DNA from: Promethearchaeati archaeon SRVP18_Atabeyarchaeia-1
GTDB lineage: Archaea; Asgardarchaeota; Atabeyarchaeia; Atabeyarchaeales; Atabeyarchaeaceae
Reading direction: 5' to 3'
Length of the DNA stretch: 64,000 bases
Assembly: GCA_037308085.1 (NCBI GenBank)
Contig: CP147779.1
Coordinates: forward strand, 1,248,001 to 1,312,000
A model generated the notes under the pieces. It saw only the letters and a program-made list of their open reading frames with translations. It ran no database searches and had not been told where the DNA came from. A program made the translations under genes and the position numbers. The stretch's first letter is position 1; the number at the start of each line of letters is the position of its first letter. Shown here in pieces: positions 3,743 to 30,759 of the stretch.

Positions 3743-3821
3743 AAACCTGCTCTGGCATAAAGGGCGGGTTCCTCAATCCTCCTTTTCTGATTCTCAGTCA
3801 GACAAGTTGAAAGCTTATTAG

Positions 3822-3945
3822 AGTTCTGTTACCTCTGCGGCTGATAACCGTTTAGGTCAACTTCTCCGCTTTGGCTCATAGCCTTGTTGAAGGGACTAAT
3901 CACTGCTACACGTGCGGAGCGATCCAGGGTGAACCGCACCCTTTC
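3822..3945 (-). ncRNA. Putative omega-RNA scaffold overlapping the tnpB 3' end
   Basis: GGGTG-CGGTT-CACCC hairpin, CTCCGC...GCGGAG long-range stem and a terminal hairpin using the TIR. Same architecture as 12433-12565. Overlap with the tnpB 3' end is typical of TnpB omega-RNAs. Confidence 0.6.
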
Positions 3946-5058
3946 ATCTTGGGCTTTAAGCATGTTCAGACAAGCATTTACATGTCGATCTATTCCGCAG
4001 CATTCTAGGGTTTTCGCTTTCGGGTCTCGCATGATACACCCACACACCGCGCATACCCTAGAAGTGTTCCAAGGACTCACTTTGACGGCTTTGACTCCTT
4101 CCCAGAGAGCCTTGTACTCGATGAAGCCTTGTAGCCTGTGGAAGCTCCACGAGTTCAGCCTCCGCTTCAGCCTCTTGGAGCGCACGCTGATCATCTGGAC
4201 CTTCCCGTTGAAACTGTTGACGCCTAGTGCTTTCCTGTTGATTGCCCTGCGGATGTGTCTAAGGTCTTCGAGAATAATGCCTTGCCCTCTGTTCTTCGCT
4301 TGCCTAACTATTGCTGAACTCACCTGATGCAGCATCGTGTTGACTTTGTTGTTCTGGTTAGCGAACCATCTTCTCTGGATCTTCGTCGCCACCCGCCTAT
4401 CCTTAGCGTACTTGGATTGAGCTCTCCGCACCCGCTCAAAGTACCCTTGCCTAGCCTCTGAAACTCCTGACAAGTCGTGGCTTTCAACAGCCAGTTCTCC
4501 GCCTTCTCTTACGTAGGCTCCATCTATTGAGCGTTCATTCGTGTCGTACGCCACGTAGCTCCCTGGTTCGGTAATCTCAGCGGTCTTCGAGAAAACCACT
4601 GAAACCGTGGAAGCAGTCAAGGTCACTGAGCCTAACTTGAGCGCGGCGTCTGATAGGAACTGTGCCGCCCTCTTGTGGAGGGGGACGTAGAAGTACTCTC
4701 TGGGCTTGATCGGTATTCTCAGCTTGCCGTCAACGACCTTGTAGGCTTGGTTTCCCAGTTTAGCCGTGAGCTTCGTAGCTCTCGGCACTCGAGCGTTCTG
4801 GCGCCTTCTCCTCTTCGCTTTCCGGTAGTTCTTCAGGATGGCGGTGGCAGCCTCTGTGGCTGAGAGGCTGTACCAGGTGTGGAGACCGAAACCACTTAGC
4901 TGGTGGTAGACCTCGCTTTGCAGGCTGAACCTCGAGGTCACATTCTTCTCCAGGCCGACGCGGATGCAGCAGTTAACCATGGTTCTGAAGGTTTCTAGTA
5001 GGCTGAGAACACGACTTGTAGGCTCGTACGGTATCTGCACCGCTTTAATTGCCTGCAT
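3829..5058 (-). CDS. tnpB: TnpB RNA-guided endonuclease homolog (RuvC-III Asp reads His)
   Basis: RuvC-I YVAYDTNE, RuvC-II IILEDL, W..SF..LQ..IEYKA, TSRVCAVCG Zn finger, DRHVNACLN. Likely start ATG 5058, about 25 bp below a TTTAAATA box. Confidence 0.9.
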   Translation of the reverse strand: MQAIKAVQIPYEPTSRVLSLLETFRTMVNCCIRVGLEKNVTSRFSLQSEVYHQLSGFGLHTWYSLSATEAATAILKNYRKAKRRRRQNARVPRATKLTAKLGNQAYKVVDGKLRIPIKPREYFYVPLHKRAAQFLSDAALKLGSVTLTASTVSVVFSKTAEITEPGSYVAYDTNERSIDGAYVREGGELAVESHDLSGVSEARQGYFERVRRAQSKYAKDRRVATKIQRRWFANQNNKVNTMLHQVSSAIVRQAKNRGQGIILEDLRHIRRAINRKALGVNSFNGKVQMISVRSKRLKRRLNSWSFHRLQGFIEYKALWEGVKAVKVSPWNTSRVCAVCGCIMRDPKAKTLECCGIDRHVNACLNMLKAQDERVRFTLDRSARVAVISPFNKAMSQSGEVDLNGYQPQR

Positions 5059-5237
5059 AAAACCAAATAAGCCAAAAATCTTATTTAAACTCACCAACCG
5101 CAGAGGTAACAGATCCCTTATTAGGTAGGATTGTAAGATCACAGCATGCTCCTAGATACGCGCGACGCATCTAGGCTTGCTAGAGGAGCCGTGTCGGGGA
5201 AGCGCACTCTGATGGCTACTCGGAAGAGGCGATTCAC

Positions 5238-6036: not shown

Positions 6037-7002
6037 CGCTCTGTTAACTCTTCGGGTGACAGTTGGTGCCGTTAGCTTCTCGGCCGTATGGTGGCCTTAT
6101 TAGTCGAAGTACCCCCTTTTTCGGGCAAGCAGGCGGTCAAAGCCGTCAAGCAGAGCTACACGCCACCAACCGAACTACTCAGCCTCCTAGACGAGTTCAG
6201 AAAGATGGTGAACGACTGCATACAAATCGGTCTGGCTGAGAATGTTACGTCGATGAAGGCGCTCTCAAAGAAAGCATACCGTGAACTCGCACGATACGAC
6301 GCGCCAACCTACTACCGTCTGACTGCGATTAGTAAAGCTACCGGGATCCTTCGGAATTATGGGCACGCGCTGAGGAAGCTGCAGAGGGTGAAGAAGCCCT
6401 ATGCAACAAGGCTCATGCTCACTGACTGCTACGGCTTCAAGATAATTAATGGCGAACTCAGACTGCCCATCAGGGCAAGAGAGTACATCCATGTTCCGCT
6501 GAACGCCTACACGTTGCAGTCTATTGAGGGTTCGACTGTCCGTTCAGTCTGCTTGAGCGCCTCCGCCCTGTCATTAGCTTTCTCGAAGGAGGTTACTCAG
6601 GCTGAGCCTGCGGGTCTAATCGGGGTAGACCGCAACCTCGACAACGTAACCGCTGCATCCTCAAACGAAGGTGTGAGGAGGTATAACCTGTCAAGGGCAA
6701 CCGATATCAAGGAGAACTGCAGGCAGGCCAAGCGGGGTTTCAAGCGAGGCGATTGCCGAGTCATGAAGCAGCTCTACTCCAAATATGGGCGAATCCAGAG
6801 GAACAAGGTAAACTGGATACTGCACAACACCTCAGCAAGCATAGTGGAGCAGGCGAAGGAGAAACAGTTCGGCATAGTCATGGAGGACATCAAGGGCATC
6901 CGAAAACTCTACAGGAAGGGAAACTGGCAGGGCAAGGACTACAGGGCGAGGATGGAGCAGATGCCACCCAGCTAACTCTTCAACCGAAGAGTTAACAGAA
7001 CC
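6037..7002 (+). mobile_element. Internally deleted TnpB element with IS6-like TIRs (element 2)
   Basis: 19/20 IR: TCTGTTAACTCTTCGGGTGA (6040-6059) vs TCAACCGAAGAGTTAACAGA (6980-6999). Right end reads GGTTCTGTT on the minus strand. Degenerate flanking repeat CATGACTAC/CACGAGTAC (7/9). Confidence 0.8.
6088..6975 (+). pseudogene. tnpB: Truncated tnpB (RuvC-I and RuvC-II present; Zn finger and RuvC-III deleted)
   Basis: GVDRNLDN and IVMEDIKGIRK; N-terminus paralogous to element-1 TnpB. After RARM the ORF runs directly into the last ~46 nt of the omega-RNA/TIR. Confidence 0.8.
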
Positions 7003-8918: not shown

Positions 8919-10499
8919 CTACTTTATACTGACAGCCTTGGAACCAGACCTTTTTCGCATGAACATCAGACCAGCAACAACAATGATGGCACCCAGTGCA
9001 CTGACAATCAACAGCATCGTTGGTAGGCCGGATGGACTAGTTAGAGGCGACAACTCCACAGTGTAGGTATACGCTGGGTCGTCACACACATATAGCACGC
9101 CAGTCGCGGACCAGTATTGTGTCGCGTTCACTGGTGTCCTTGTCCCACTATCGACTTTCCAAACGGCCTTGACAGTGTACCCATCAGGAACTGCAAGTTT
9201 GAAGTACACCCAGTCTCCGAGAGATACCTTCGACAAGGTAACGTTGCGGATGCCGCCAGTGCCAGTCACTGCACCCGTGTGATCCACGAGTTGATCGGGC
9301 TCGCCAGTTCCATTGGTCGCAAAGTCAGGGACCCCATCCCAGCCATAGTCGACGAAGAACATTGTGCTACCGCCAAAGTGAGTGCTACCCTGTGCGCCAC
9401 CCCCGGTGACATCAATCTGATGGGCATAGCTGCCGTAGTAGACTATAACACCGACCTTCTTCCACACAATCGTTGCGTTCTCAGGAACCTGTATTTCATA
9501 CGTGTTCAATGACCATTGTCCACCACTGTCCGCAGTCTTGACTTCCCAGTTACTTGTAACCGCGAGTCCAAGGTAAAGTCCAAGCTCAGCAAAGACGTTG
9601 ATATCATACTGAATGTTGACATACATATGAAGCGCATCGCTGTAGCCACTGATGCCCCCATGCCCAACTACTGCAAAGTCGACTACCAGGTCAATGAATC
9701 CTCCCGCCATCAGGAGGATGTTGTCAGGCGAGGTTCCACTTGTCTTCCATACGTCAATTTTGCCAACACATTTCACAACATTGAAACCGCCTTGGATTCC
9801 AGGTATGTTAAGATCCTGGAGTGCTGTGGATACCTTACTCCATACCGAATTGAGTGCGCCTTGTATTCTGTTTCGTAGCCAAGCGCTGAAATCCCACTGA
9901 ACATGGTTTACAACGTAGTTTGTTCCTGTCCATGTGTCATTTGCGTCTGTGAACTTAATCGTCAGAGGATTGGCGCTACCAGTATGAGTGACAGGGTCTA
10001 CGCTCTCAATTGCTGGGAACGGAATACTGAAGTTCTTCGTGGTTCCTGTCGGAATAAGCCATTTGGCGTCCCAACTTGTGCTAGAATTCCACTTATTGTA
10101 GAACACATTCGCTGTGCCATTCACGTCAATGTTTACGTCGATCACCAGCATCGCATTGACAGCAATGGTTGCCGTGACAATTCCTGTTGACGTGCTAACG
10201 TTTATGTCATGGGCCGCAACTGATATCTTGGCACCTATGTACAGCTTGTTGACGTTGATGCTGTAGGAATGGAAACCAGCAATGTTTGTAGTGATGATAA
10301 CGTGTCCTGACGCGTTGATCCAGGCCATGAGAGTCCCGTTTACGTCATACAAGAGTGATCCAGGGATGGTCATAGCCATTTGCCGTTGAGGTGCCGCCTC
10401 ATTCTGCTGTGTCGAAGTTGCTGTCGCTGGAGATGCGAACGCTGCTGTTGTCGCTAGAATTGCGATGAAGAGTGCTGCGAAGATAGCTTTACCATTCAA
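8919..10499 (-). CDS. Secreted, C-terminally anchored beta-rich surface (glyco)protein
   Basis: Signal peptide after likely TTG start at 10499 (GGGGAG upstream), many N-x-S/T sequons, C-terminal TM followed by RKR. Confidence 0.75.
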   Translation of the reverse strand: MNGKAIFAALFIAILATTAAFASPATATSTQQNEAAPQRQMAMTIPGSLLYDVNGTLMAWINASGHVIITTNIAGFHSYSINVNKLYIGAKISVAAHDINVSTSTGIVTATIAVNAMLVIDVNIDVNGTANVFYNKWNSSTSWDAKWLIPTGTTKNFSIPFPAIESVDPVTHTGSANPLTIKFTDANDTWTGTNYVVNHVQWDFSAWLRNRIQGALNSVWSKVSTALQDLNIPGIQGGFNVVKCVGKIDVWKTSGTSPDNILLMAGGFIDLVVDFAVVGHGGISGYSDALHMYVNIQYDINVFAELGLYLGLAVTSNWEVKTADSGGQWSLNTYEIQVPENATIVWKKVGVIVYYGSYAHQIDVTGGGAQGSTHFGGSTMFFVDYGWDGVPDFATNGTGEPDQLVDHTGAVTGTGGIRNVTLSKVSLGDWVYFKLAVPDGYTVKAVWKVDSGTRTPVNATQYWSATGVLYVCDDPAYTYTVELSPLTSPSGLPTMLLIVSALGAIIVVAGLMFMRKRSGSKAVSIK

Positions 10500-10600
10500 A
10501 TGCTTTATCTCCCCACATTTCCATTTTGTTTCGCGTTGATCCCACTGTATGCCCACCGTCGCTTAAAAATGTTGAGGACGTAATCGGTGTATGAAGAATG

Positions 10601-11026: not shown

Positions 11027-11635
11027 ATGGAGAAGAGCTATAGTCCGCGCGAGGCTGCAGCCATACTTGGCGTTGCAGTGCACACCATTCAAGTATGGGA
11101 CAGACAGGGCAAGATACGCTGCGTCAGGCTACCTTCTGGCCGGAGGCGTGTTCCCGAGAGCGAGGTTAGACGCCTCCTGAACGTAAAGGAGGAGAGGAAA
11201 GACGCAATATATGCGAGGGTTTTCTCCAGCAACCAGAAGGGAGAACTCGAGAGGCAGGTAAGCTTACTGAAAGAATTGGCGCCCAGCGCGGTAGTGTACA
11301 CCGATGTTAGATCTGGCTTGAATTTCAAGAGGAAAGGATTATTCCAGCTTCTAGAGGATCTCGTCGACAGGAAGATCGCCAGACTCTTCATTGCGCACGA
11401 AGACAGGCTTGCAAGGATCGGATATGAGCTCATATCATGGTTGTGCGAGAAATACGGCACAGAGATAATCGTCGCAGAGAAGGAGGTAAATCCTTCTCTC
11501 CGACAAGAGTATGGCAAGGATATGATTGCACTCAACATGGCATTTTCGGCGAAGCTTTTCGGGTTGAGGAGTCATAATACAGCTAGGATTCTTCGAGCTG
11601 TAAAGGACGCCATAGCCGAAACGAGGTCTTCTTGA
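11027..11635 (+). CDS. tnpA: IS607-family serine recombinase TnpA (MerR-type HTH + resolvase), probably inactive, no tnpB partner
   Basis: YSPREAAAILGV...WDRQGKI HTH; YARVFSSNQKGELERQ, SGLNFKRKG, EDRLARIG, FSAKLFGLRSH. Confidence 0.85.
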   Translation: MEKSYSPREAAAILGVAVHTIQVWDRQGKIRCVRLPSGRRRVPESEVRRLLNVKEERKDAIYARVFSSNQKGELERQVSLLKELAPSAVVYTDVRSGLNFKRKGLFQLLEDLVDRKIARLFIAHEDRLARIGYELISWLCEKYGTEIIVAEKEVNPSLRQEYGKDMIALNMAFSAKLFGLRSHNTARILRAVKDAIAETRSS

Positions 11636-11703: not shown

Positions 11704-12387
11704 ATGAGAATTTTCGCATCACGCAAGGTTAGGATGGAGGCTATCGAAGATTCTGGCGTGGCAACGTCGTTTGACCGTATAACCGGCATGCCTCAGTTTG
11801 GGCTTCTCCTGCGGCTATTTACCTTGAAGGCGCTCAGCAGTCAGAGTGGCGGTAGAGTCATTGACATCGGTTGCGGCGGAGGGCGACTTGTCCTCAGGCT
11901 TGCGAAAAGTTATCCCTTTGAAGAAGTCATCGGTCTGGACCTGTCTGACAAGATGCTGAGGCTAGCTAGAAGGAGGGCGATAGATGCAGGTCTCGGTGAT
12001 CGAGTCAAGTTCAAGGAGGGGAACGCGGAAATGATCCCATACCCCAGCGGATCGTTTGATCTGGTTGTGAGCACTCTGTCCTTGCATCACTGGTCGAGAC
12101 CAGAGCTTGTCTTCGATGAGATTGCGCGGGTTCTTAGGCCTGCGGGAAAGTGTGTGTTGGGAGACATGCGCAGAGATCCCATGCCCGTATTCACGGGGCT
12201 TATGTGGGTTGTAACGCATTTCATAGTTCCACGCTCTCTGAGGCGCGCAGGAGAGCCTCTTGGGTCTCTGCAGTCAGCATACACGAAGGAGGAGACCTCT
12301 GCCTTTTTGCAGAAGTCCAAACTCGGAGCCTTCAGCAAGGTCACAACGGGACCATTCTGGCTAATCATCAAAGGAAGAAAAATGTGA
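11704..12387 (+). CDS. Class I SAM-dependent methyltransferase
   Basis: VIDIGCGGG, GLDLS, GNAEMIPYPSGSFDLVVS, SLHHW, LRPAG. Confidence 0.9.
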   Translation: MRIFASRKVRMEAIEDSGVATSFDRITGMPQFGLLLRLFTLKALSSQSGGRVIDIGCGGGRLVLRLAKSYPFEEVIGLDLSDKMLRLARRRAIDAGLGDRVKFKEGNAEMIPYPSGSFDLVVSTLSLHHWSRPELVFDEIARVLRPAGKCVLGDMRRDPMPVFTGLMWVVTHFIVPRSLRRAGEPLGSLQSAYTKEETSAFLQKSKLGAFSKVTTGPFWLIIKGRKM

Positions 12388-12432
12388 TGCGCGTAGCAGA
12401 ACAGGCGGGTTGAAGTAGATACTCTATCTCAA

Positions 12433-12565
12433 GGTTCTGTCAAGTCTTCGGTTGATGACTCGACTGACTCGCATCGACTTTCAGGATTACCTTTCCTTCC
12501 GTTCCGAGGGTTCCTGTACCATCGCTTCACCTGCGAGTCCCTTCAGGCCGAACCACAGCCCTGCA
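12433..12565 (-). ncRNA. Stand-alone putative TnpB omega-RNA
   Basis: CAGGGCTG-TGGTT-CGGCCTG hairpin, perfect GACTCGCA/TGCGAGTC stem, terminal CGAGTC...GACTTG hairpin. 3' end colinear with the end of element 2. Confidence 0.65.
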
Positions 12566-12701
12566 CCTGCTTCCACGTCTACACAGGTTCTCTCTTTCCC
12601 CTCCGCCTTCAGCTATAAAGCCACATACCGCGGAGCGAGAAGACTCTTAGACTCACTACCCCGTTCCCAACATATAAATCAACCATAGACTTTGCAGAGC
12701 C
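12433..12701 (-). mobile_element. 269-bp MITE with IS6-like TIRs carrying only a putative omega-RNA (element 3)
   Basis: Ends GGTTCTGTCAAGTCTTCGGTTG and (reverse complement) GGCTCTGCAAAGTCTATGGTTG match at 17/22. TSD TATCTCAA (12425-12432) / TATTTCAA (12702-12709). TTTATA box just inside the upstream end. Confidence 0.8.
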
Positions 12702-21364: not shown

Positions 21365-24300
21365 TTAAGCTTGATTGGTAGTCCTATCTGTCCAGCTCTT
21401 GGCTACCTGCGCAGCTTGCTCCACGGTCAGCTGCCTGAACACGCCTTTCTTGGTAAGCGAGTTGATCACATCCATCGCCTTGCCCCTCCTAAGCCCTTGC
21501 TTGGTGAGGAGGAAGTCCACGACTCGTGGCATGAAGAAGACTCCTCGCTCAGCGGAAAGCATCCTCGCGGTGTGTACGGCTGCTCTTTCGACGCGGTTCA
21601 GCTTCGCGCTTGGGGCTTCGAGCAACATGTAGGGCGAGCACAGTGGCATAGCGAATACCTCGTCGGCTACGTCGTCAGCGCCCTTGAACGCATTCGGGTC
21701 TCCGTCCCATGACTTAAGGGTCGCCGCATACTTCTTCTCGAAGTTCTCTGTGAAGCTTCGGAGAACGCCCTGCAGCTCTTCGCCTGCAGCCTCAGTGCAG
21801 AACAGTGTCGCCATGATGTAGTTCCCCACGTTGGAGACAACTTTATACTGACCGTAATCAGCGAACTTCAATCCTGCCCCGGTCTGCTTCTTGAAGACTT
21901 CCCCCAAGATTGCCTGGTTGGCGGAGAGAAAGCCGCTTATTAGGTTGGGGTCAACGCTCTCCTCTGACCCTATGCTCCTGCTGTACAAGGCGCGACCGCT
22001 TGCAAGGTGAACGACAATGAGCTGAGCCAGGCTCGTTGTCTGCATAAGAACCTTCGCTTTCCTCTCCTCAGTACGCTTCCTAGAACTGCGCAACCTCAAT
22101 ATGCCGACTAGCGCAACGACAAGTGCGCCACCCCCACCACCAATAATGGCAATTGTCAGCAAAGACAATCCTTGAGGGATAACGACCTCGATGTTCAGTT
22201 TGAGATCGCTGGCTGACTTTGTTATTCCATCCCCCAAGTAGGTTGCATTGACGTTGATGGACTTCATGTCGCTCGTCGCGGGAAGGGAAGATTCCCCCAC
22301 GCCACCATTGATGACCGCTGACCTAATGATGGTTATTACGGATCCATTTGTGTAAGTGACTATGAAGTTGAACTGGATGCCAAATCCGTTCGGAGCCGAG
22401 GTTCCATTCCCATATTTCAGTGCAGCAGAGACCGACAATGACGATCCAACTGTTACCGAAGTCTCAGCCACTTGAAGGGAGACGCTCATAGGTATCTTCG
22501 ATAGGTTGAGGGTAAACGCTGTTTGATTAAGGTAGGCTCCATTGTATGATGCGTAGATTGTCAGAAGGTGGCTTCCAGCCGATGGCAGATTGCGTGTCGA
22601 ATAGCTGAAGTTATAGCAGCCGCCAGCATGCTGAGTCACTCCAGTCGCAACAACGCTTCCCACCCTGAAGGCTGGGACTGGGCTTGACGGGAAGGTGGCA
22701 TTTGCGGCGTCTGTTTCATTTAGGTAGCGGACACTTAGGGCTATTATATCTCCCCACGTTGCGCCTATCACCGGCGATGCGAGTTTTATTGCCGTCTGAG
22801 CTCTAACTACATTGATTTCACTGGTCGCGAAGCTTACTTCGTTCTCCAGATCGTAGGTGTCCAAGAATGTTATGTTGTAGTTGTCGCCCTTATTGAGCTT
22901 CAAGGAGTACACAGTTGACGAACCTATGTGTATGGTGGTACTGTTGACTAGTGAGTCCGTGCTGTTGTAAGCATTAATTGTGATGCTGCTGTAGGCGAGT
23001 GGGGCGGAAATGGTTAAGTTAAACGCGCACCCCTCTATTGCCTTAGATGGCACGGACACAGTGATCGCATAGATGGACTTTACGCTGATGAGCCAATCAC
23101 TGTTCCAAGCGTTGCTGAGGTTGCTTATCTGTGAGATTAGGTAGTAGCTAGAGCTATTGGTGAAGCTAGAGACGTAGGTTCGGTTGTTCCAGATGTTGGG
23201 CGGGTGAGCGGTTCCGTTCCAGAATGGTGGGATCGGTGTGACCTTGAACGTCTTGTTATACCACGTGTACGGGTTGCCGGGCTTGCCGTCGCTTGTGAAC
23301 GTGGCGTTCCAGAGAGTGAAGTCGTCGCGGGCGATGTATCTAGTCGTGACAGCGCCGGCGGAAAAGACCTCCATCCTCGCCGTCCAGTTGACTGTGAAGG
23401 TGACCGATGTGTTCGTCACGAACATGAAAAGGCGTACATTGTTGCCGACTTGCGTAGTGTTTCTGTCTATGGGCTGGGTCGTGGCGTTAAGATACAGGTA
23501 CATATTAACTTGGGCAGGAGAGCTATACTGTCTGGGTTGCATACTGTCACTGACTGGGAGAACTCTCACAAGGGCTAAGAAGTTCCAACCCGGACCGAGA
23601 TCACTTTCCTGTTTCCAATTGTTTGTATAGTAACAGGCGAGCTTTTCGTCGTATGGCGGTGGCGTGGGGTCAGGGGAGTAATACCACTGATAATAGTTAC
23701 CAAATCCAACGATGGACGAGCCGTCCATGACAATCCAGTACCTCGTTCCGCCAGTAAGAGTGATGGGAAGCCCGGTCGGGGTGCTCACCGAAACATTGTG
23801 CCAAGCTGGATTCGCGGAGTTTGACAGCCAGCCATACCCCAGGGAGAGTGCGATGGGTGCTGGCGTCGCCTGCGGTCCACCGCTATCTGGCACAATGTGC
23901 AACATTATTGCTGGCGGATTGTTGAATGCAGAGTAGAACAGGCGGATGACGGTAATGTTGACGGTGTCGGTGGGTGTGAGGCTCATTGCCAGCATAGGAT
24001 ACCTGGGAGGGGGACCAGCAGAGAGTTGTCCGCATCCATAATCCGCAGTCGGGTCGCCGCCCTGTATCTCCCTTATGTCATTCGCGGCGACTATGTTCTT
24101 GATGGTGATGTCCTGCCAGGCTGGCTGAGAGGGATTGTTATAGAAGAACGCAGTACGATTACTGTACTGCGCGAAGGTGTTGTTGGCATTCAAGTTGTAT
24201 GATTGCCATCCGTTCACGGACTCCGTCAAGTCCATCGGGTACCCGTTCCCAGACTGGCTTGCAGGTGGCGAAAATGATGTCTGCGGGTATCCCCCAAATG

Positions 24301-24643: not shown

Positions 24644-27352
24644 TCACGCACCGTTCTCTTGGTCATCGCCAATTTCGTCACTTGACTTGGAGGCGTTCTC
24701 CGTCTGGCTCATTATTAGTGCTGCTTCATTAACGGTTAGCTGTTTGAAGACGCCCTCTTCGACAAGTGAGTCGACGGTAGCAACGATCTTGCTTCGCTTG
24801 AGCTTCCTTTTGGTTAGTAGATAGTCGAAGATGCGCGGCATGAAGATAACGCTGCGAGTGGCGGAGAGCCGTCTTGCTTCGTCCACCGCTGCCTTTTCCA
24901 TCCATGAAAGCTTGACCTTCGTAAGTCGGTCTAGTTCTAGAATGTAGGGCGAGATTAGTCGAATCGAGAAGACATTGTCCGCGATCGTGTCGGCGCCCCT
25001 GAGGACTTCAAGGTCGCCATTCCATCCGACAAGTTCCTTTTGATACTTCTTCTCAAATTCGTCTGTGAACTGTTTGAGAAGGTCCTGCAGTTCCTCACCA
25101 GCGGCTTCCGTGCAGAATAGCGCTGACATGACGTGCTTGCCTACATGGGATACGACCTTATATTCACCGTAATCCGCGAATCTTAGTCCGGAAGGAGCCT
25201 TGCCTTTGAAGACTTGGCCCATGATTGACTGATTAGCAGTCAGGAATCCGCTTATGAGATTGGGATCAACGGTCTCCTCCGTGCCAAGACTTCTGCTGTA
25301 CGTGGTCAGGCCACTGCGGAGCTCAACGACGACCAGCTGGGCTAGGCTTGCGGTCTGTCTCAGTATCTTCATTTTCTTCTCTTCCTTGACTTTTCTCCTA
25401 GTCCGGTATCTCCAAGCAGCCACTACTGCTATCACCGCTCCGGCGGAGCCGCCTCCGGCAAGAAATATCGGCAATGGGGAGAGCCCCTGCGGGTCGATGT
25501 GAAGCAGCATGGTCGTCTGGTTTAGATACATTGCACTGTATGAGACGATGATCGTGAGGATGTAGTCTCCGGATGAGGGCAGGAGTCTTGTTTCAATAAC
25601 GAAGGAGAACCATCCACCTCCAGCGGCTTGAACGCTGATAGCCGTGAAATTAAGGCTGCTTGCGGTCACGTTGACGATTGGGGTGCCTGGGAATTCTTGG
25701 TCGGAGCCAAGAGTTGTGTTCCTGTACCTGAAGGCGATGGTGACAGCGTCCCCCCAAGTCGCCCTTAGTGACGAAGACTGCAGGTTAAAGGAGGTGAGAG
25801 GCGCGGTCACATTTATCGGCATTGTCAAATAACTTATGTCAGGATAGTCAGCTGTGTCGAGGAGGGTCATTACGAAGTTGCCAGTTTGATTCAACCTGAC
25901 CGGGAAGTATGTTGAGGTTGAGGGAATCAGTACAGTTCTGTTTAAGGCGACGAAATCCGTACTGTTGAAGATAGTTATCCTGCAACGTGTGGAGCTAACT
26001 GGAGCGGTTATACCGATATTGAGCTGCTTTCCCCTTATTACCAGTGAGGGGGTTGACGAACTGACCGAGTAATGAGACATCGCCACGATAGTCCAGGTTG
26101 CATCCCATCTGAGAGACACATCTACATTGTCCGTCTGCACTATATACATGGAGCTCGGGGCGGAATACGCTGCTGTGAAGTTGATGTTCTTGTCGTTCGT
26201 CACGTCAGTCGCCAGGTTGACCTCCCAGTCAAGAGGAATTGACATGACTGTCAAGGTTCGATTATACCAGACGTACGGGTCGTAGGGTCTAGTCGCGCTA
26301 AAAAACCGAGCAGTCCAGTTCGTCGATCCCGGCTGCGCTTTGTACCCCGTTTCCACCGACATCGGTAGGTGCTTCTCGAACCTTGCTGTCCAGTTCTCCA
26401 CGAAGGCGATTGAAGTATTTGTGCCCAAGTTGAAATAGCAGGCGTCCGGGCGTGGCTGCGTTACATTTAGCGTCATGTCGACCTTATCAGACGAGGAATA
26501 AGTCATAACCTGGGAAGGGTTTCCGTCTACGACTGGGAGGACCCTTAGTACCAGCATCAAGTTGATGTAGGTACCAAGCCGCGTCTCATTCCACCACGAC
26601 GTCGGAGTCGCGTATGCAGCCATGGGTCGCTGATCCATGCTCGCTCCTGCATCTCCTACGTAGCCCCAATGAATTACGTTATTTGCGGGGATGCCGCTCG
26701 CATTTACTACCACCCAATAGTAGTTTCCTCTCGTCAGGTTCAAAGGTCGGGTAAACTTCACTTCGCCCCATCCTATGTTTGGCAACGGGGGCAACGTAAC
26801 AGTTGCGACAAGTTTTCCTCCTTGCGGAGTATAGGTGCTGATACTCCCTGTTGAGTAGACTTGCAGCGGCATGGTGGTGGAATTCGAAGAGTAGCACATC
26901 CATACGCTCGTTAGGTTGGCCGTATCCGGTAGCACAAATCTCATGGCAAGCCTCTGCCACGATGAGGCCGTATTCTTTAGAGTCAAAGTGTTATTGGGAC
27001 TGGGCGCAAATTGCACCTCTCTGAAGTCAGGGGCTGCCACTAACTCGGACACCAGGAGACTCTGAGATGAGACCAAGAATCCGGTGGGGGCATTGTGGCT
27101 GAAGTTGGAATTGCGCGGACCACGGCAAGTTGTATAACTGTTAACTGTCATCTGGTTGCTCCATTGCCATCCGTAAACGGAATCAAGTAGATTGATGCTG
27201 GGTCCCGTCCCGGTCAGCGTTAGTGCAGGAGCAAAAGTTGCCCTTGGGTTGGGAGCTGAAGCGGCATAAGTTGCTGCATAAGAATCCAATGAGCTAACCG
27301 CGATGCATACTGCGAAGAGAAGCGTGAATAACAAGGCTGATCTGTTCTTCAT
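24644..27352 (-). CDS. Paralogous single-pass membrane protein with cytoplasmic longin-like domain
   Basis: Same architecture; shares DPNLISGFL, FADYG, LFCTEAAGEELQ and ATWGD with the 21365 gene. Confidence 0.75.
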   Translation of the reverse strand: MKNRSALLFTLLFAVCIAVSSLDSYAATYAASAPNPRATFAPALTLTGTGPSINLLDSVYGWQWSNQMTVNSYTTCRGPRNSNFSHNAPTGFLVSSQSLLVSELVAAPDFREVQFAPSPNNTLTLKNTASSWQRLAMRFVLPDTANLTSVWMCYSSNSTTMPLQVYSTGSISTYTPQGGKLVATVTLPPLPNIGWGEVKFTRPLNLTRGNYYWVVVNASGIPANNVIHWGYVGDAGASMDQRPMAAYATPTSWWNETRLGTYINLMLVLRVLPVVDGNPSQVMTYSSSDKVDMTLNVTQPRPDACYFNLGTNTSIAFVENWTARFEKHLPMSVETGYKAQPGSTNWTARFFSATRPYDPYVWYNRTLTVMSIPLDWEVNLATDVTNDKNINFTAAYSAPSSMYIVQTDNVDVSLRWDATWTIVAMSHYSVSSSTPSLVIRGKQLNIGITAPVSSTRCRITIFNSTDFVALNRTVLIPSTSTYFPVRLNQTGNFVMTLLDTADYPDISYLTMPINVTAPLTSFNLQSSSLRATWGDAVTIAFRYRNTTLGSDQEFPGTPIVNVTASSLNFTAISVQAAGGGWFSFVIETRLLPSSGDYILTIIVSYSAMYLNQTTMLLHIDPQGLSPLPIFLAGGGSAGAVIAVVAAWRYRTRRKVKEEKKMKILRQTASLAQLVVVELRSGLTTYSRSLGTEETVDPNLISGFLTANQSIMGQVFKGKAPSGLRFADYGEYKVVSHVGKHVMSALFCTEAAGEELQDLLKQFTDEFEKKYQKELVGWNGDLEVLRGADTIADNVFSIRLISPYILELDRLTKVKLSWMEKAAVDEARRLSATRSVIFMPRIFDYLLTKRKLKRSKIVATVDSLVEEGVFKQLTVNEAALIMSQTENASKSSDEIGDDQENGA

Positions 27353-30707: not shown

Positions 30708-30759
30708 AGGTTTGTTGCCTCTGCGGTTGTTGATATCGGTTTGAGGTAGCTTCTCCGCT
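30708..30759 (-). mobile_element. Remnant right end / omega-RNA 3' end related to element 1
   Basis: Minus strand AGCGGAGAAGCTACCTCAAACCGATATCAACAACCGCAGAGGCAACAAACCT aligns with element 1 AGCGGAGAAGTTGACCTAAACGGTTATCAGCCGCAGAGGTAACAGAACT. Confidence 0.7.

Follow-up and report, generated by a model that had tools for sequence, protein, structure and literature searches.

TnpB elements in the window

The window analysed here is a stretch of 64,000 nucleotides from the genome of Promethearchaeati archaeon SRVP18_Atabeyarchaeia-1 (contig CP147779.1, positions 1,248,001 to 1,312,000 of the forward strand), and all coordinates are positions within it. It contains an intact family-A TnpB element (element 1), a family-B TnpB element with an internal deletion (element 2), a MITE (element 3), and a decayed right-end remnant, with the following features.

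3822..5116, minus strand: element 1, intact family-A TnpB element
3829-5058, minus strand: tnpB ORF of element 1, 409 aa counted from the first ATG
3814..3821 and 5117-5124: 8-bp target duplication of element 1, CTTATTAG, two perfectly matching copies
3822..3861, minus strand: right end of element 1, with 5' arm GTTGACCT (3861-3854), inner hairpin CGGTT/AGCCG, 3' arm GAGGTAAC (3835-3828) and tail AGAACT
5095..5116, minus strand: left TIR of element 1, GGATCTGTTACCTCTGCGGTTG, 19/22 identical to the right end
6037..7002, plus strand: element 2, family-B TnpB element with a 294-bp internal deletion
6037..6058, plus strand: left TIR of element 2, CGCTCTGTTAACTCTTCGGGTG, matching the reverse-complemented right end at 19 of 22 positions
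6088..6975, plus strand: truncated tnpB ORF of element 2, 295 aa, N-terminal part only
6971..6978, plus strand: 5' arm of the element 2 hairpin, GCTAACTC, outside the TIR that is common to the DDE elements
6979..7002, plus strand: right TIR of element 2, comprising loop TTCAACCGAA, 3' arm and tail
6989-6996, plus strand: 3' arm of the element 2 hairpin, GAGTTAAC
6997-7002, plus strand: tail of element 2, AGAACC
12433..12701, minus strand: element 3, a 269-bp MITE consisting of a left TIR and an omega-RNA region, with no ORF
12433..12464, minus strand: terminal hairpin and tail of element 3, with 5' arm GTCGAGTC (12464-12457), loop ATCAACCGAA, 3' arm GACTTGAC (12446-12439) and tail AGAACC (12438-12433)
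30708..30759 (approximate), minus strand: decayed family-A right-end remnant, GCTACCTC ... GAGGCAACAAACC, with five mismatches to the TIR core

In blastn, element 2 aligns with a full-length copy in two blocks (1-918 with 1-918, and 918-966 with 1213-1261), which is how the deletion was placed; a global MAFFT alignment against the full copy had shifted it to the end. As a result of this deletion, the tnpB stop codon sits in the 5' arm of the hairpin. The truncated ORF is 36% identical to family A over residues 15-317, and no Pfam TNB domain was found in it. There is no target duplication at element 2, where the flanks ATGACTAC and CACGAGTA mismatch. Only the last 49 nt of the element lie beyond the deletion and the upstream scaffold is gone, so its hairpin is a relic and not a working part. 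Element 3 has the target duplication TTGAAATA/TTGAGATA, with TTG preceding the left copy, and in element 1 the stop codon TAA lies within the TIR, 7 nt before the end. A solo IS607-type tnpA (166 bits) is located at 11027-11635, outside all of these elements.

Terminal inverted repeats and DDE elements with the same ends

The elements are bounded by TIRs of approximately 22 bp that start with GGTTCTGT and are flanked by 8-bp target duplications. Of 53 elements, 49-53 carry GGTTCTGT at the right end, and 38 are flanked by a duplication matching at 7 or more of its 8 positions. Over the 22 bp, left and right ends agree with a per-position identity of 0.70-0.98. The IS6/IS26 family has the end consensus GGTTCTGTTGCAAA and likewise generates 8-bp duplications (PMC6807381). 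Measured against the features described for that family (PMC6807381), the TIRs have the GG start and G7 and agree with the consensus GGTTCTGTT. The elements fall outside IS200/IS605, which has a Y1 TnpA and subterminal hairpins at both ends, on account of their TIRs, their duplications and a hairpin present at the right end only. They fall outside IS607, which has a serine-recombinase TnpA and a GG core, on account of their TIRs and duplications.

Neither the TnpB elements nor the MITEs contain a transposase gene. Instead, two elements of the same genome with the same termini and 8-bp duplications of their own encode DDE_Tnp_IS240, and their ends agree with the TIRs at 24/24 bases for family A and 23/24 for family B. 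The full-length family-B TIR ATCACCCGAAGAGTTAACAGAACC and the end of DDE element L031, ATCACCCGAAGACTTAACAGAACC, differ at one base, and the target duplication of L031, TGGAGAAC, is perfect. The best NCBIfam match of the DDE protein is IS6 at 120.7 bits (cut-off 125), and Pfam DDE_Tnp_IS240 matches at 65 bits (cut-off 27). A DDE protein of 383 aa is encoded at genome positions 549899-551047. Only one intact DDE copy is present in this genome; homologues (at most 62% identical) occur in all five of the other host genomes tested, some of them between GGTTCTGT...ACAGAACC ends with an 8-bp duplication. Because they contain no transposase and the DDE gene lies elsewhere, the TnpB elements are non-autonomous users of IS6-like ends, and the DDE protein would be expected to bind those ends.

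Compensatory changes in the terminal hairpin

An earlier reading from the sequence alone had proposed that the right TIR doubles as the 3' hairpin of the RNA scaffold. The right-end strings it quoted are present at elements 1, 2 and 3 and at the remnant. Element 2, whose quoted right end spans 6955-7002, ends (6959-7002) in ...GATGCCACCCAG-CTAACTC-TTCAACCGAA-GAGTTA-ACAGAACC, and element 3 (12433-12480, minus strand, ending at 12433) in ...GATGCGAGTCAGT-CGAGTC-ATCAACCGAA-GACTTG-ACAGAACC. Three stem pairs differ between these two elements and pairing is retained at each, as had been claimed: from element 2 to element 3, U-A becomes C-G, A-U becomes G.U, and C-G becomes G-C. The loop of element 2 carries further changes relative to the full-length family-B TIR. 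The hairpin of element 2 folds at -11.2 kcal/mol (z -4.3) and that of element 3 at -13.2 kcal/mol (z -2.8).

The stem of family A is weaker; it is bulged and contains several C.A mismatches. In element 1 the right end reads ...GTTGACCT...AGGTAACAGAACT on the minus strand (3861-3822), and the imperfect stem there contains one bulge and one G.U. The ACCT/AGGT pairing reported there is present, although it forms just the inner part of the stem GUUG(A)CCU/AGGUAAC. When the 51-mer is folded in isolation (z -2.0), a structure other than this stem has the minimum energy, and the remnant at 30708-30759 shows no significant fold (z 0). One family-A copy in genome 655232 carries a compensated GTCA/TGAC variant. 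The further claim, that the opposite-end TIR changes in step, is fully borne out in elements 1 and 2. In element 3 it is borne out in part, as the left end GGCTCTGCAAAGTC shows the G/C swap but differs at two other positions.

Covariation across related loci

An RNAalifold consensus from 12 copies in the window's own genome comprises 28 pairs, and a covariance model (R1) was built from the same genome's 12 ends. In element 3, R1 matches 12433-12573 with 157.7 bits. Among 80 related tnpB loci from Asgard archaea, Bathyarchaeia and Thaumarchaeota, it also finds a match at the 3' end of 73. These other phyla were reached through a protein-guided locus search, not by searching kin genomes with R1; among 100 relatives chosen by genome kinship, R1 detected the RNA in three genomes, all from the window's own family. 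Family-A right ends in two related genomes yielded one extra copy, too few for a separate covariation test. Rfam 15 gave no match, either at the gathering threshold or at E<=1.

The sequence-only reading had made its case depend on covariation in a larger alignment, and across the 73 loci this covariation is strong. In the R1 alignment, which is itself structure-fitted, 91.1% of cells are paired, compared with 64.9% after shuffling and 29-37% when the partner is slid. Double changes occur at 26 of the 28 consensus pairs. Helix 7, the TIR hairpin, is 91.8% paired, with double changes at all seven of its pairs.

Such covariation could in principle be an artefact, given that the sequences are related, that covariance-model alignment leans towards structure, and that the commonest arm, GTTAAC, is its own reverse complement. 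We regard this explanation as highly improbable, and it is already contradicted on several counts. A structure-blind control, in which the arms were cut at fixed offsets from a GATG anchor and from the element end, gave the same result, with 82.8% pairing against 68.4±1.4% in shuffles, none of 5000 of which was as high. For this control the HMM was kept solely as an anchor from which raw offsets were read; regex rules for the 5' arm (which misplaced about 15 sequences) and hmmalign match columns (which lost 3' ends behind long loop inserts) were dropped. Non-palindromic arm types pair as well, including GTCAAG/CTTGAC, GTTACC/GGTAAC, GATAAC/GTTATC, GTCGGG/CCCGAC, GCCAAG/CTTGGC, GCTAAG/CTTAGC and GTTGC/GCAAC. 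The haplotypes are divided, with pair 6 being GC in 29 and CG in 20, and pair 3 being UA in 25 and CG in 15. On a FastTree phylogeny of TnpB, whose topology may inflate such counts, at least 30 switches from one Watson-Crick pair to another are required (minima of 5, 9, 3, 6 and 7 for pairs 2-6), and the slide controls fall far below the observed pairing.

The stem is not perfect throughout. At pair 7, C.A (11) outnumbers G.U (4), which leaves a firm stem of 6 bp, and one Nitrosopumilus lineage has an uncompensated C.C or C.U at pair 3. Selection acts on the terminal hairpin, as the dozens of compensating base changes found in three archaeal phyla show. The hairpin has been kept among TnpBs that are 38-80% identical, in keeping with the long co-evolution that had been suggested.

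RNA structure and right-end specificity

In pairs 1-6, G.U exceeds A.C by 37 to 10, an excess that points to sense-strand RNA. This bears on the alternative that the palindrome works as DNA, either by forming a cruciform or by giving the transposase a second, inverted site with which to tell the two ends apart, with the arms co-varying because the same protein binds both. The 5' arm does adjoin the TIR, the ends of the DDE elements hold a second, subterminal copy of the motif, and DNA hairpins are used at the ends of IS200/IS605 (PMC13565253). Yet a roughly fourfold excess of sense-strand G.U over A.C is not expected from duplex DNA or from protein recognition, and the stem is kept even though the loop ranges from 9 to 83 nt. 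The subterminal copies at DDE-element ends are direct repeats, not inverted, with no complementary arm other than the self-complementary GTTAAC; non-palindromic arm types are there at background complementarity. Left ends also lack the arm: pairing at all six positions is found in 61% of right ends, whereas at left ends the share is 12% for the top strand and 2% for the bottom strand. We therefore consider a purely DNA-level role very unlikely. The 5' arm, being absent from left ends and from DDE-element ends, appears to be dispensable for transposition.

Right ends are also the more strictly conserved at their outermost bases. TIR positions 1-6 show 8 deviations at right ends versus 46 at left ends, and position 3 alone shows 0 versus 16 (p = 7e-6). 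Coding constraint on the tail was ruled out, since the position of the stop codon varies (7 nt from the end in just 30 of 79). Other tnpB families of this genome, with ends TTTCTAGAAACGG or GTTGAAACCC, have unrelated right ends and are uninformative about the origin of the hairpin.

TnpB, guide geometry and expression

The TnpB of element 1 matches Pfam Cas12f1-like_TNB with 51.9 bits. Family B scores 108.9 bits and family A 89.7 against NCBIfam guided_TnpB (cut-off 100), and 69 and 62 bits, respectively, against TIGR01766 (cut-off 32). The RuvC-III motif is DRHVNA in family A versus DRDxNA in family B. One family-B TnpB is located at genome positions 1697622-1698824. The elements that encode such proteins may be capable of RNA-guided DNA cleavage.

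TT[G/A] stands ahead of the left duplication in 25 of 38 elements, versus 6 of 38 on the mirrored right side. This one-sided placement suggests a guide that starts directly after the TIR, and is compatible with TT[G/A] as a putative TAM. Together with right-end conservation and weak metatranscriptome contigs, the geometry suggests that the mature RNA contains the TIR. The contigs come from a wetland metatranscriptome run (X1). Some lie on the tnpB of element 1, and others cross from the right end into the flank at element 3 and at another MITE. They are unstranded, show no RNA ends and could reflect DNA carry-over or neighbouring mRNA, and so are weak hints only. Three further RNA runs gave no contigs, and uncovered parts are not evidence of silence.

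Alternatively, the hairpin might be a real RNA structure that lies outside the mature guide RNA, serving the tnpB transcript in 3' stability, termination or processing, with the omega-RNA either ending before the TIR or having the TIR and duplication trimmed from it. Archaeal 3' hairpins can stabilise transcripts, and this hairpin lies at the extreme end of the ORF, where it often holds the stop codon. No U-run follows it, however, which rules out an intrinsic terminator and counts against the transcript role more generally. MITEs with no ORF nevertheless retain the whole domain and the hairpin, and TT[G/A], separated from the left end by precisely the length of one duplication, fits a guide right after the TIR. 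Similarly, conservation of the outermost bases specifically at right ends, and an invariant loop complementary to them, fit a pseudoknot next to the guide. A pseudoknot of this kind is present in known TnpB RNAs, as in IStron PK-2 (bioRxiv 10.64898/2026.03.11.711047). Here the pairing is nearly invariant, with only four doubly changed cells. On balance, a role confined to the transcript seems unlikely, though less so than one confined to DNA.

A proposed double use of the right end

We propose that these are non-autonomous TnpB/omega-RNA elements (1.2-1.3 kb) and omega-RNA-only MITEs (approximately 220-270 bp), lying between the ends of IS6-like DDE transposons, and that the last 24 bp or so of the right end are used twice, as a DNA end and as an RNA hairpin. 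As double-stranded DNA, the right end mirrors the left, and a DDE transposase encoded elsewhere would bind both, driving transposition that leaves a target duplication of 8 bp. In the RNA, which would be transcribed together with tnpB, TIR positions 7-14 would supply the 3' arm of the last scaffold stem, the partner arm being located directly upstream of the TIR. A pseudoknot probably forms as well, between the outermost GAACC and the invariant GGUUC loop of the first scaffold hairpin. The guide would then begin at the first flanking base, and so with the target duplication, and cutting of the empty site would use the TT[G/A] before the left-hand duplication as its TAM. Drift or exchange of the TIR would be followed by matching changes in the left TIR, preserving the symmetry that the transposase recognises, and in the upstream arm, preserving the pairing of the RNA.

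We consider this account as a whole, with a right end that serves as both DNA and RNA, to be probable. The dual constraint had been put forward in the sequence-only reading, and both of its halves withstood the tests applied, namely TIRs and duplications for the transposase end and covariation for the RNA stem. A bolder version is tentative, and we give it slightly less than an even chance: that some 30 nt hold four overlapping codes (C-terminal codons and stop, omega-RNA stem, pseudoknot, and DDE binding and cleavage site), that the partnership is ancient among Asgard archaea, Bathyarchaeia and Thaumarchaeota, and that the duplication supplies the first 8 nt of the guide. If true, this would be the prokaryotic equivalent of Fanzor-in-TIR-transposon systems, perhaps even their forerunner, and would place a homing nuclease in the service of a transposon type thought to profit little from one.

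Relation to known systems

The underlying ideas are already known, both dual-use right ends (IS605/IS607, IStrons) and a TIR within the scaffold (Fanzor). In IS200/IS605, IS607 and IStrons, the sequence of the right end is constrained as DNA by the transposase and as RNA by scaffold and pseudoknot (bioRxiv 10.64898/2026.03.11.711047; PMC13565253). As in ISDra2, IS608 and CseIStron, representing IS200/IS605 and IS607, the omega-RNA scaffold overlaps the 3' end of tnpB and reaches the right end, with a guide presumed to come from flanking DNA and a TAM presumed at the left flank. Those families lack TIRs and target duplications and use a Y1 or serine transposase, whereas the elements described here have IS6-like TIRs, 8-bp duplications, a DDE enzyme in trans, and a duplication that would make up the initial 8 nt of the presumed guide.

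Fanzor1 and Fanzor2* (Yoon et al. 2023, PMC10711439) similarly place a TnpB-family nuclease in a TIR/TSD transposon of the cut-and-join type. In those eukaryotic and viral transposons the duplication is also part of the scaffold or TAM (PMC10711439). Here TT[G/A] precedes the duplication, which therefore looks like guide, unlike in the Fanzors. The present elements also differ in having archaeal hosts and in resting on comparative evidence from dozens of compensatory changes, as opposed to a single predicted fold. Among prokaryotes, the DDE-1 to DDE-6 TnpB branches (Altae-Tran et al. 2023, PMC10691335) are comparable in having inverted terminal repeats. Solo TnpBs of those branches have ends nearly identical to those of transposase-carrying elements, with the tnpB 3' end at most 250 bp from the element end (PMC10691335). 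The DDE families named there or in a 2026 review (PMC13565253) are IS630, ISL2 and IS1031, with no IS6-like partner among them, and PMC10691335 does not report an analysis of the TIR as an RNA stem.

With IS6/IS26 (Harmer and Hall 2019, PMC6807381) the elements and their partners share the GGTTCTGT start, the 8-bp duplication and a DDE transposase. In IS6/IS26 TIRs, G1, G2 and G7 are conserved and positions 3-4 are the most variable (PMC6807381), whereas positions 3-4 are invariant at the right ends of the TnpB elements. These elements also carry no transposase, and the partner enzyme differs in having an N-terminal SWIM/zinc module and in scoring just below the NCBI cut-off for IS6.

Our analysis extends the dual-use right end from IS605/IS607 to archaeal IS6-like TIR elements, and offers comparative evidence, beyond a predicted fold, that an RNA scaffold and the putative site of an unrelated DDE transposase have bases in common and co-evolve. 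It would also define an omega-RNA family, absent from Rfam, with clear boundaries between scaffold and guide (the TIR end, the duplication as guide start and a putative TT[G/A] TAM), useful for work on compact archaeal TnpBs. The elements may further provide a tractable system for studying how TnpB modules are captured and retained by DDE transposons, the presumed route to eukaryotic Fanzors, and what a copy-in element of the IS6 type gains from a homing nuclease.

Paired ends in the window

In the small TnpB-related transposons of this window, the probable last stem of the omega-RNA scaffold has its 3′ arm inside the right terminal inverted repeat (TIR), and it has stayed paired while its sequence changed. 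The dual constraint proposed by the sequence-only reading, in which one sequence serves as both transposon end and omega-RNA stem, is supported. The ends from which that reading argued are all present in the following features:

3822-5116, minus strand: element 1 (family A), with an intact TnpB matching the Pfam Cas12f1-like_TNB and NCBIfam TnpB models; right end at 3822
6037-7002, plus strand: element 2, a TnpB element of family B that has lost 294 bp internally; quoted end at 6955-7002
12433-12701, minus strand: element 3, a 269-bp MITE consisting of a left TIR and the RNA domain; right end at 12433
near 30708-30759: decayed right-end remnant, matching the quoted end

The last 48 nt of element 2 read GAGCAGATGCCACCCAG-CTAACTC-TTCAACCGAA-GAGTTA-ACAGAACC and fold into a 9-bp hairpin (-11.2 kcal/mol; z -4.3 against shuffles). 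Where elements 2 and 3 differ, pairing is kept, with U-A becoming C-G, A-U becoming G.U and C-G becoming G-C. The deletion in element 2 removed the C-terminal third of TnpB and all but the last 49 nt of the RNA domain, so its hairpin is a relic rather than part of a working RNA. Comparison of its flanks revealed no target duplication; element 1 lies between perfect 8-bp direct repeats, CTTATTAG.

The host genome (2.81 Mb, single contig), whose nearest named relative is an Atabeyarchaeia (Asgard) MAG, carries about 12 copies of family A, 4-5 of family B and at least 8 MITEs. Both termini of each read ...AACCG[A/C]AGA[G/C][G/T]T[A/G]ACAGAACC, one inverted relative to the other, and 8-bp duplications flank most copies. 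Several MITEs of ~220-270 bp consist only of a left TIR and the family-B omega-RNA domain (genome 537714-537951, 868840-869096, 2198749-2199010, 673143, 1526452 and 2205851; window 12433-12701), and could be an extra source of guides for TnpB in trans. Family-A TnpB (window 3829-5058, minus strand, and other copies) has DRHVNA in the RuvC-III region, versus the usual DRD(V/E)NA in family B, which may mean that its catalytic site is rearranged or inactive.

Covariation of the right-end RNA

Twelve right ends from this genome (three full copies and nine MITEs or fragments) gave an RNAalifold consensus of 28 pairs, which includes the terminal hairpin and a long-range helix with, for example, a GUGGCA/UGCCAC to CUCGCA/UGCGAG switch. 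A covariance model, R1, was built from the same 12 ends. Searched against 100 relatives picked by kinship, R1 recovered only the window's own family. A protein-guided search extended the set to 80 related tnpB loci (38-81% protein identity) from MAGs of Asgard, Bathyarchaeia and Thaumarchaeota, and 73 of these gave an R1 match at the 3′ end. Across these 73 loci, pairing is kept in 91.1% of cells, compared with 64.9% after shuffling and 29-37% when the partner is slid, and double changes occur in 26 of the 28 consensus pairs. In the terminal hairpin (helix 7), 91.8% of cells pair, and every one of the seven pairs is doubly changed. The covariation expected by the earlier reading holds in this larger alignment.

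Because the R1 alignment is fitted to the structure, the arms were re-derived without it: the 5′ arm (8 nt) was located by its fixed distance from an HMM anchor based on sequence only (GATG...), and the 3′ arm was the 8 nt preceding the terminal AGAACC. Among 59 distinct haplotypes, 82.8% of positions pair, against 68.4±1.4% with shuffled partners, a level reached in 0 of 5000 shuffles. At pair 6, 29 haplotypes have G-C and 20 have C-G; at pair 3, 25 have U-A and 15 have C-G. Observed arm pairs include GTTAAC/GTTAAC, GTCAAG/CTTGAC, GTTACC/GGTAAC, GATAAC/GTTATC, GTCGGG/CCCGAC, GCCAAG/CTTGGC, GCTAAG/CTTAGC and GTTGC/GCAAC, across loops of 9 to 83 nt. On a TnpB tree built without the C-terminal 45 residues, pairs 2-6 require at least 5, 9, 3, 6 and 7 switches from one Watson-Crick type to another, ~30 double substitutions in all. 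The firm stem is 6 bp, as pair 7 is weak (11 C.A). In pairs 1-6, G.U outnumbers A.C by 37 to 10, an excess expected of RNA from the tnpB strand and not of duplex DNA.

The tnpB frame usually extends into the hairpin, and in 30 of 79 elements the stop (TAA, TGA or TAG) is the T[A/G][A/G] of the 3′ arm, 7 nt from the end. Coding nevertheless does not account for the conserved pairing, since in the other elements the stop varies in position within ~50 nt.

The right end compared with the left

The TIR alone does not account for the hairpin. At 61% of right ends the arm has a 6/6 partner within 65 nt, compared with 12% (top strand) and 2% (bottom strand) of left ends. The ends of transposase-encoding (DDE) elements with the same termini carry the terminal motif as a direct subterminal repeat and show background complementarity only, the exception being arms of the self-complementary type GTTAAC. 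This makes the 5′ arm a specific feature of RNA-bearing right ends. The opposite-end TIR largely tracks the changes, as first proposed: over TIR positions 7-14, the two ends of an element are identical at 88% of positions, against 64±3% when partners are shuffled. Departures from GGTTCT in the outermost six bases number 46 on the left and 8 on the right (position 3: 16 versus 0, p = 7e-6). Positions 3-4 are the most variable of IS6 TIRs generally (PMC6807381), so the right end bears an extra constraint.

One possible reason is base pairing between the terminal GAACC of the TIR and the invariant, complementary GGUUC loop of the first scaffold hairpin (columns 25-28 and 332-335 of alignment A3; about window 12550 and 12433-12437 in element 3). 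Pairing is seen in 93% of cells, with double changes in 4 where 0.4 would be expected. As the pairing varies so little, this guide-adjacent pseudoknot is put forward as a hypothesis.

The motif TT[G/A] precedes the left duplication in 25 of 38 independent insertions, and its mirror on the right occurs in 6 of 38. Such one-sidedness fits a TAM rather than a target preference of the DDE enzyme, which would be symmetric. The guide would then begin with the duplication, directly after the TIR, in which case the scaffold must run through the TIR. In a wetland metatranscriptome run, contigs bridge the right end and its flank at element 3 (12299-12561) and at the MITE copy at genome 673143; being unstranded and unable to show RNA ends, they lend this reading weak support. 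Other contigs of this metatranscriptome lie on the element 1 tnpB (4040-4793) and on an ORF at 8919-10556.

For element 1, the ACCT/AGGT pairing originally suggested was partly right. A stem homologous by position is present in family A (GUU[A/G](A)CC/GGUAAC, with an inner helix CGGUU/AACCG), but this stem is bulged and less stable, and on its own the sequence favours another fold. One copy (genome 655232) has a compensated GUCA/UGAC variant, and several decayed copies have C.A mismatches. The relatives searched contained only one further family-A copy.

A probable IS6-like partner

The element termini start GGTTCTGT; for IS6/IS26, the published consensus is GGTTCTGTTGCAAA, accompanied by 8-bp duplications (PMC6807381). 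Two larger elements of the same genome, at 549276-555829 (L031) and 614149-618567, share these termini, each with its own 8-bp duplication, so the TIR reading is sound. Both encode a DDE_Tnp_IS240 transposase with a SWIM zinc finger, one copy intact and one broken, whose top NCBIfam match is IS6 at 120.7 bits, slightly below the cut-off of 125. Their terminal 24 nt match the family-A TIR at 24 of 24 bases and the family-B TIR at 23 of 24. Homologues (at most 62% identity) occur in all five other genomes tested with related TnpB elements, some in elements with visible GGTTCTGT...ACAGAACC ends and an 8-bp duplication. We infer that the DDE transposase binds the TIRs of the TnpB elements. L031 itself is IS6-like and 6.55 kb long; its 8-bp duplication, TGGAGAAC, is perfect, and the terminal motif is present twice in tandem at each end. 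It encodes an intact 383-aa SWIM-DDE transposase and, as cargo, a 995-aa Eco57I/MmeI-like restriction-modification enzyme.

For IS607 and IStrons, it is established that transposase and omega-RNA determinants overlap at the right end (bioRxiv 10.64898/2026.03.11.711047), and Fanzor guide RNAs are predicted to include TIRs and duplications (PMC10711439). Among prokaryotes, TnpBs associated with DDE transposases and having inverted repeats have been reported, as have solo TnpBs sharing those ends (PMC10691335), and the DDE partners of TnpB named in a 2026 review are ISL2, IS630 and IS1031 only (PMC13565253). In the literature we found no description of an IS6-like partner of TnpB, nor of covariation between a TIR and an omega-RNA stem.

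Other mobile and repeated sequences

A solo IS607-family serine transposase (window 11027-11635, plus strand; NCBIfam transpos_IS607, 166 bits) has MerR HTH and resolvase domains, and is followed 3′ by a SAM methyltransferase gene (11704-12387) with no tnpB. The genome has at least two further tnpB families, presumably of IS605/IS607 type, whose conserved 3′ ends, ...TTTCTAGAAACGG and ...[G/A]TTGAAACCC, are unrelated (genome 1177042, 1995582, 1556269 and 750789; and 848230, 1511910, 342867 and others). A 147-nt direct repeat with 73% identity (window 21728-21874 and 25043-25189) lies in two large adjoining minus-strand ORFs of 1045 and 902 aa, which are probably paralogues.
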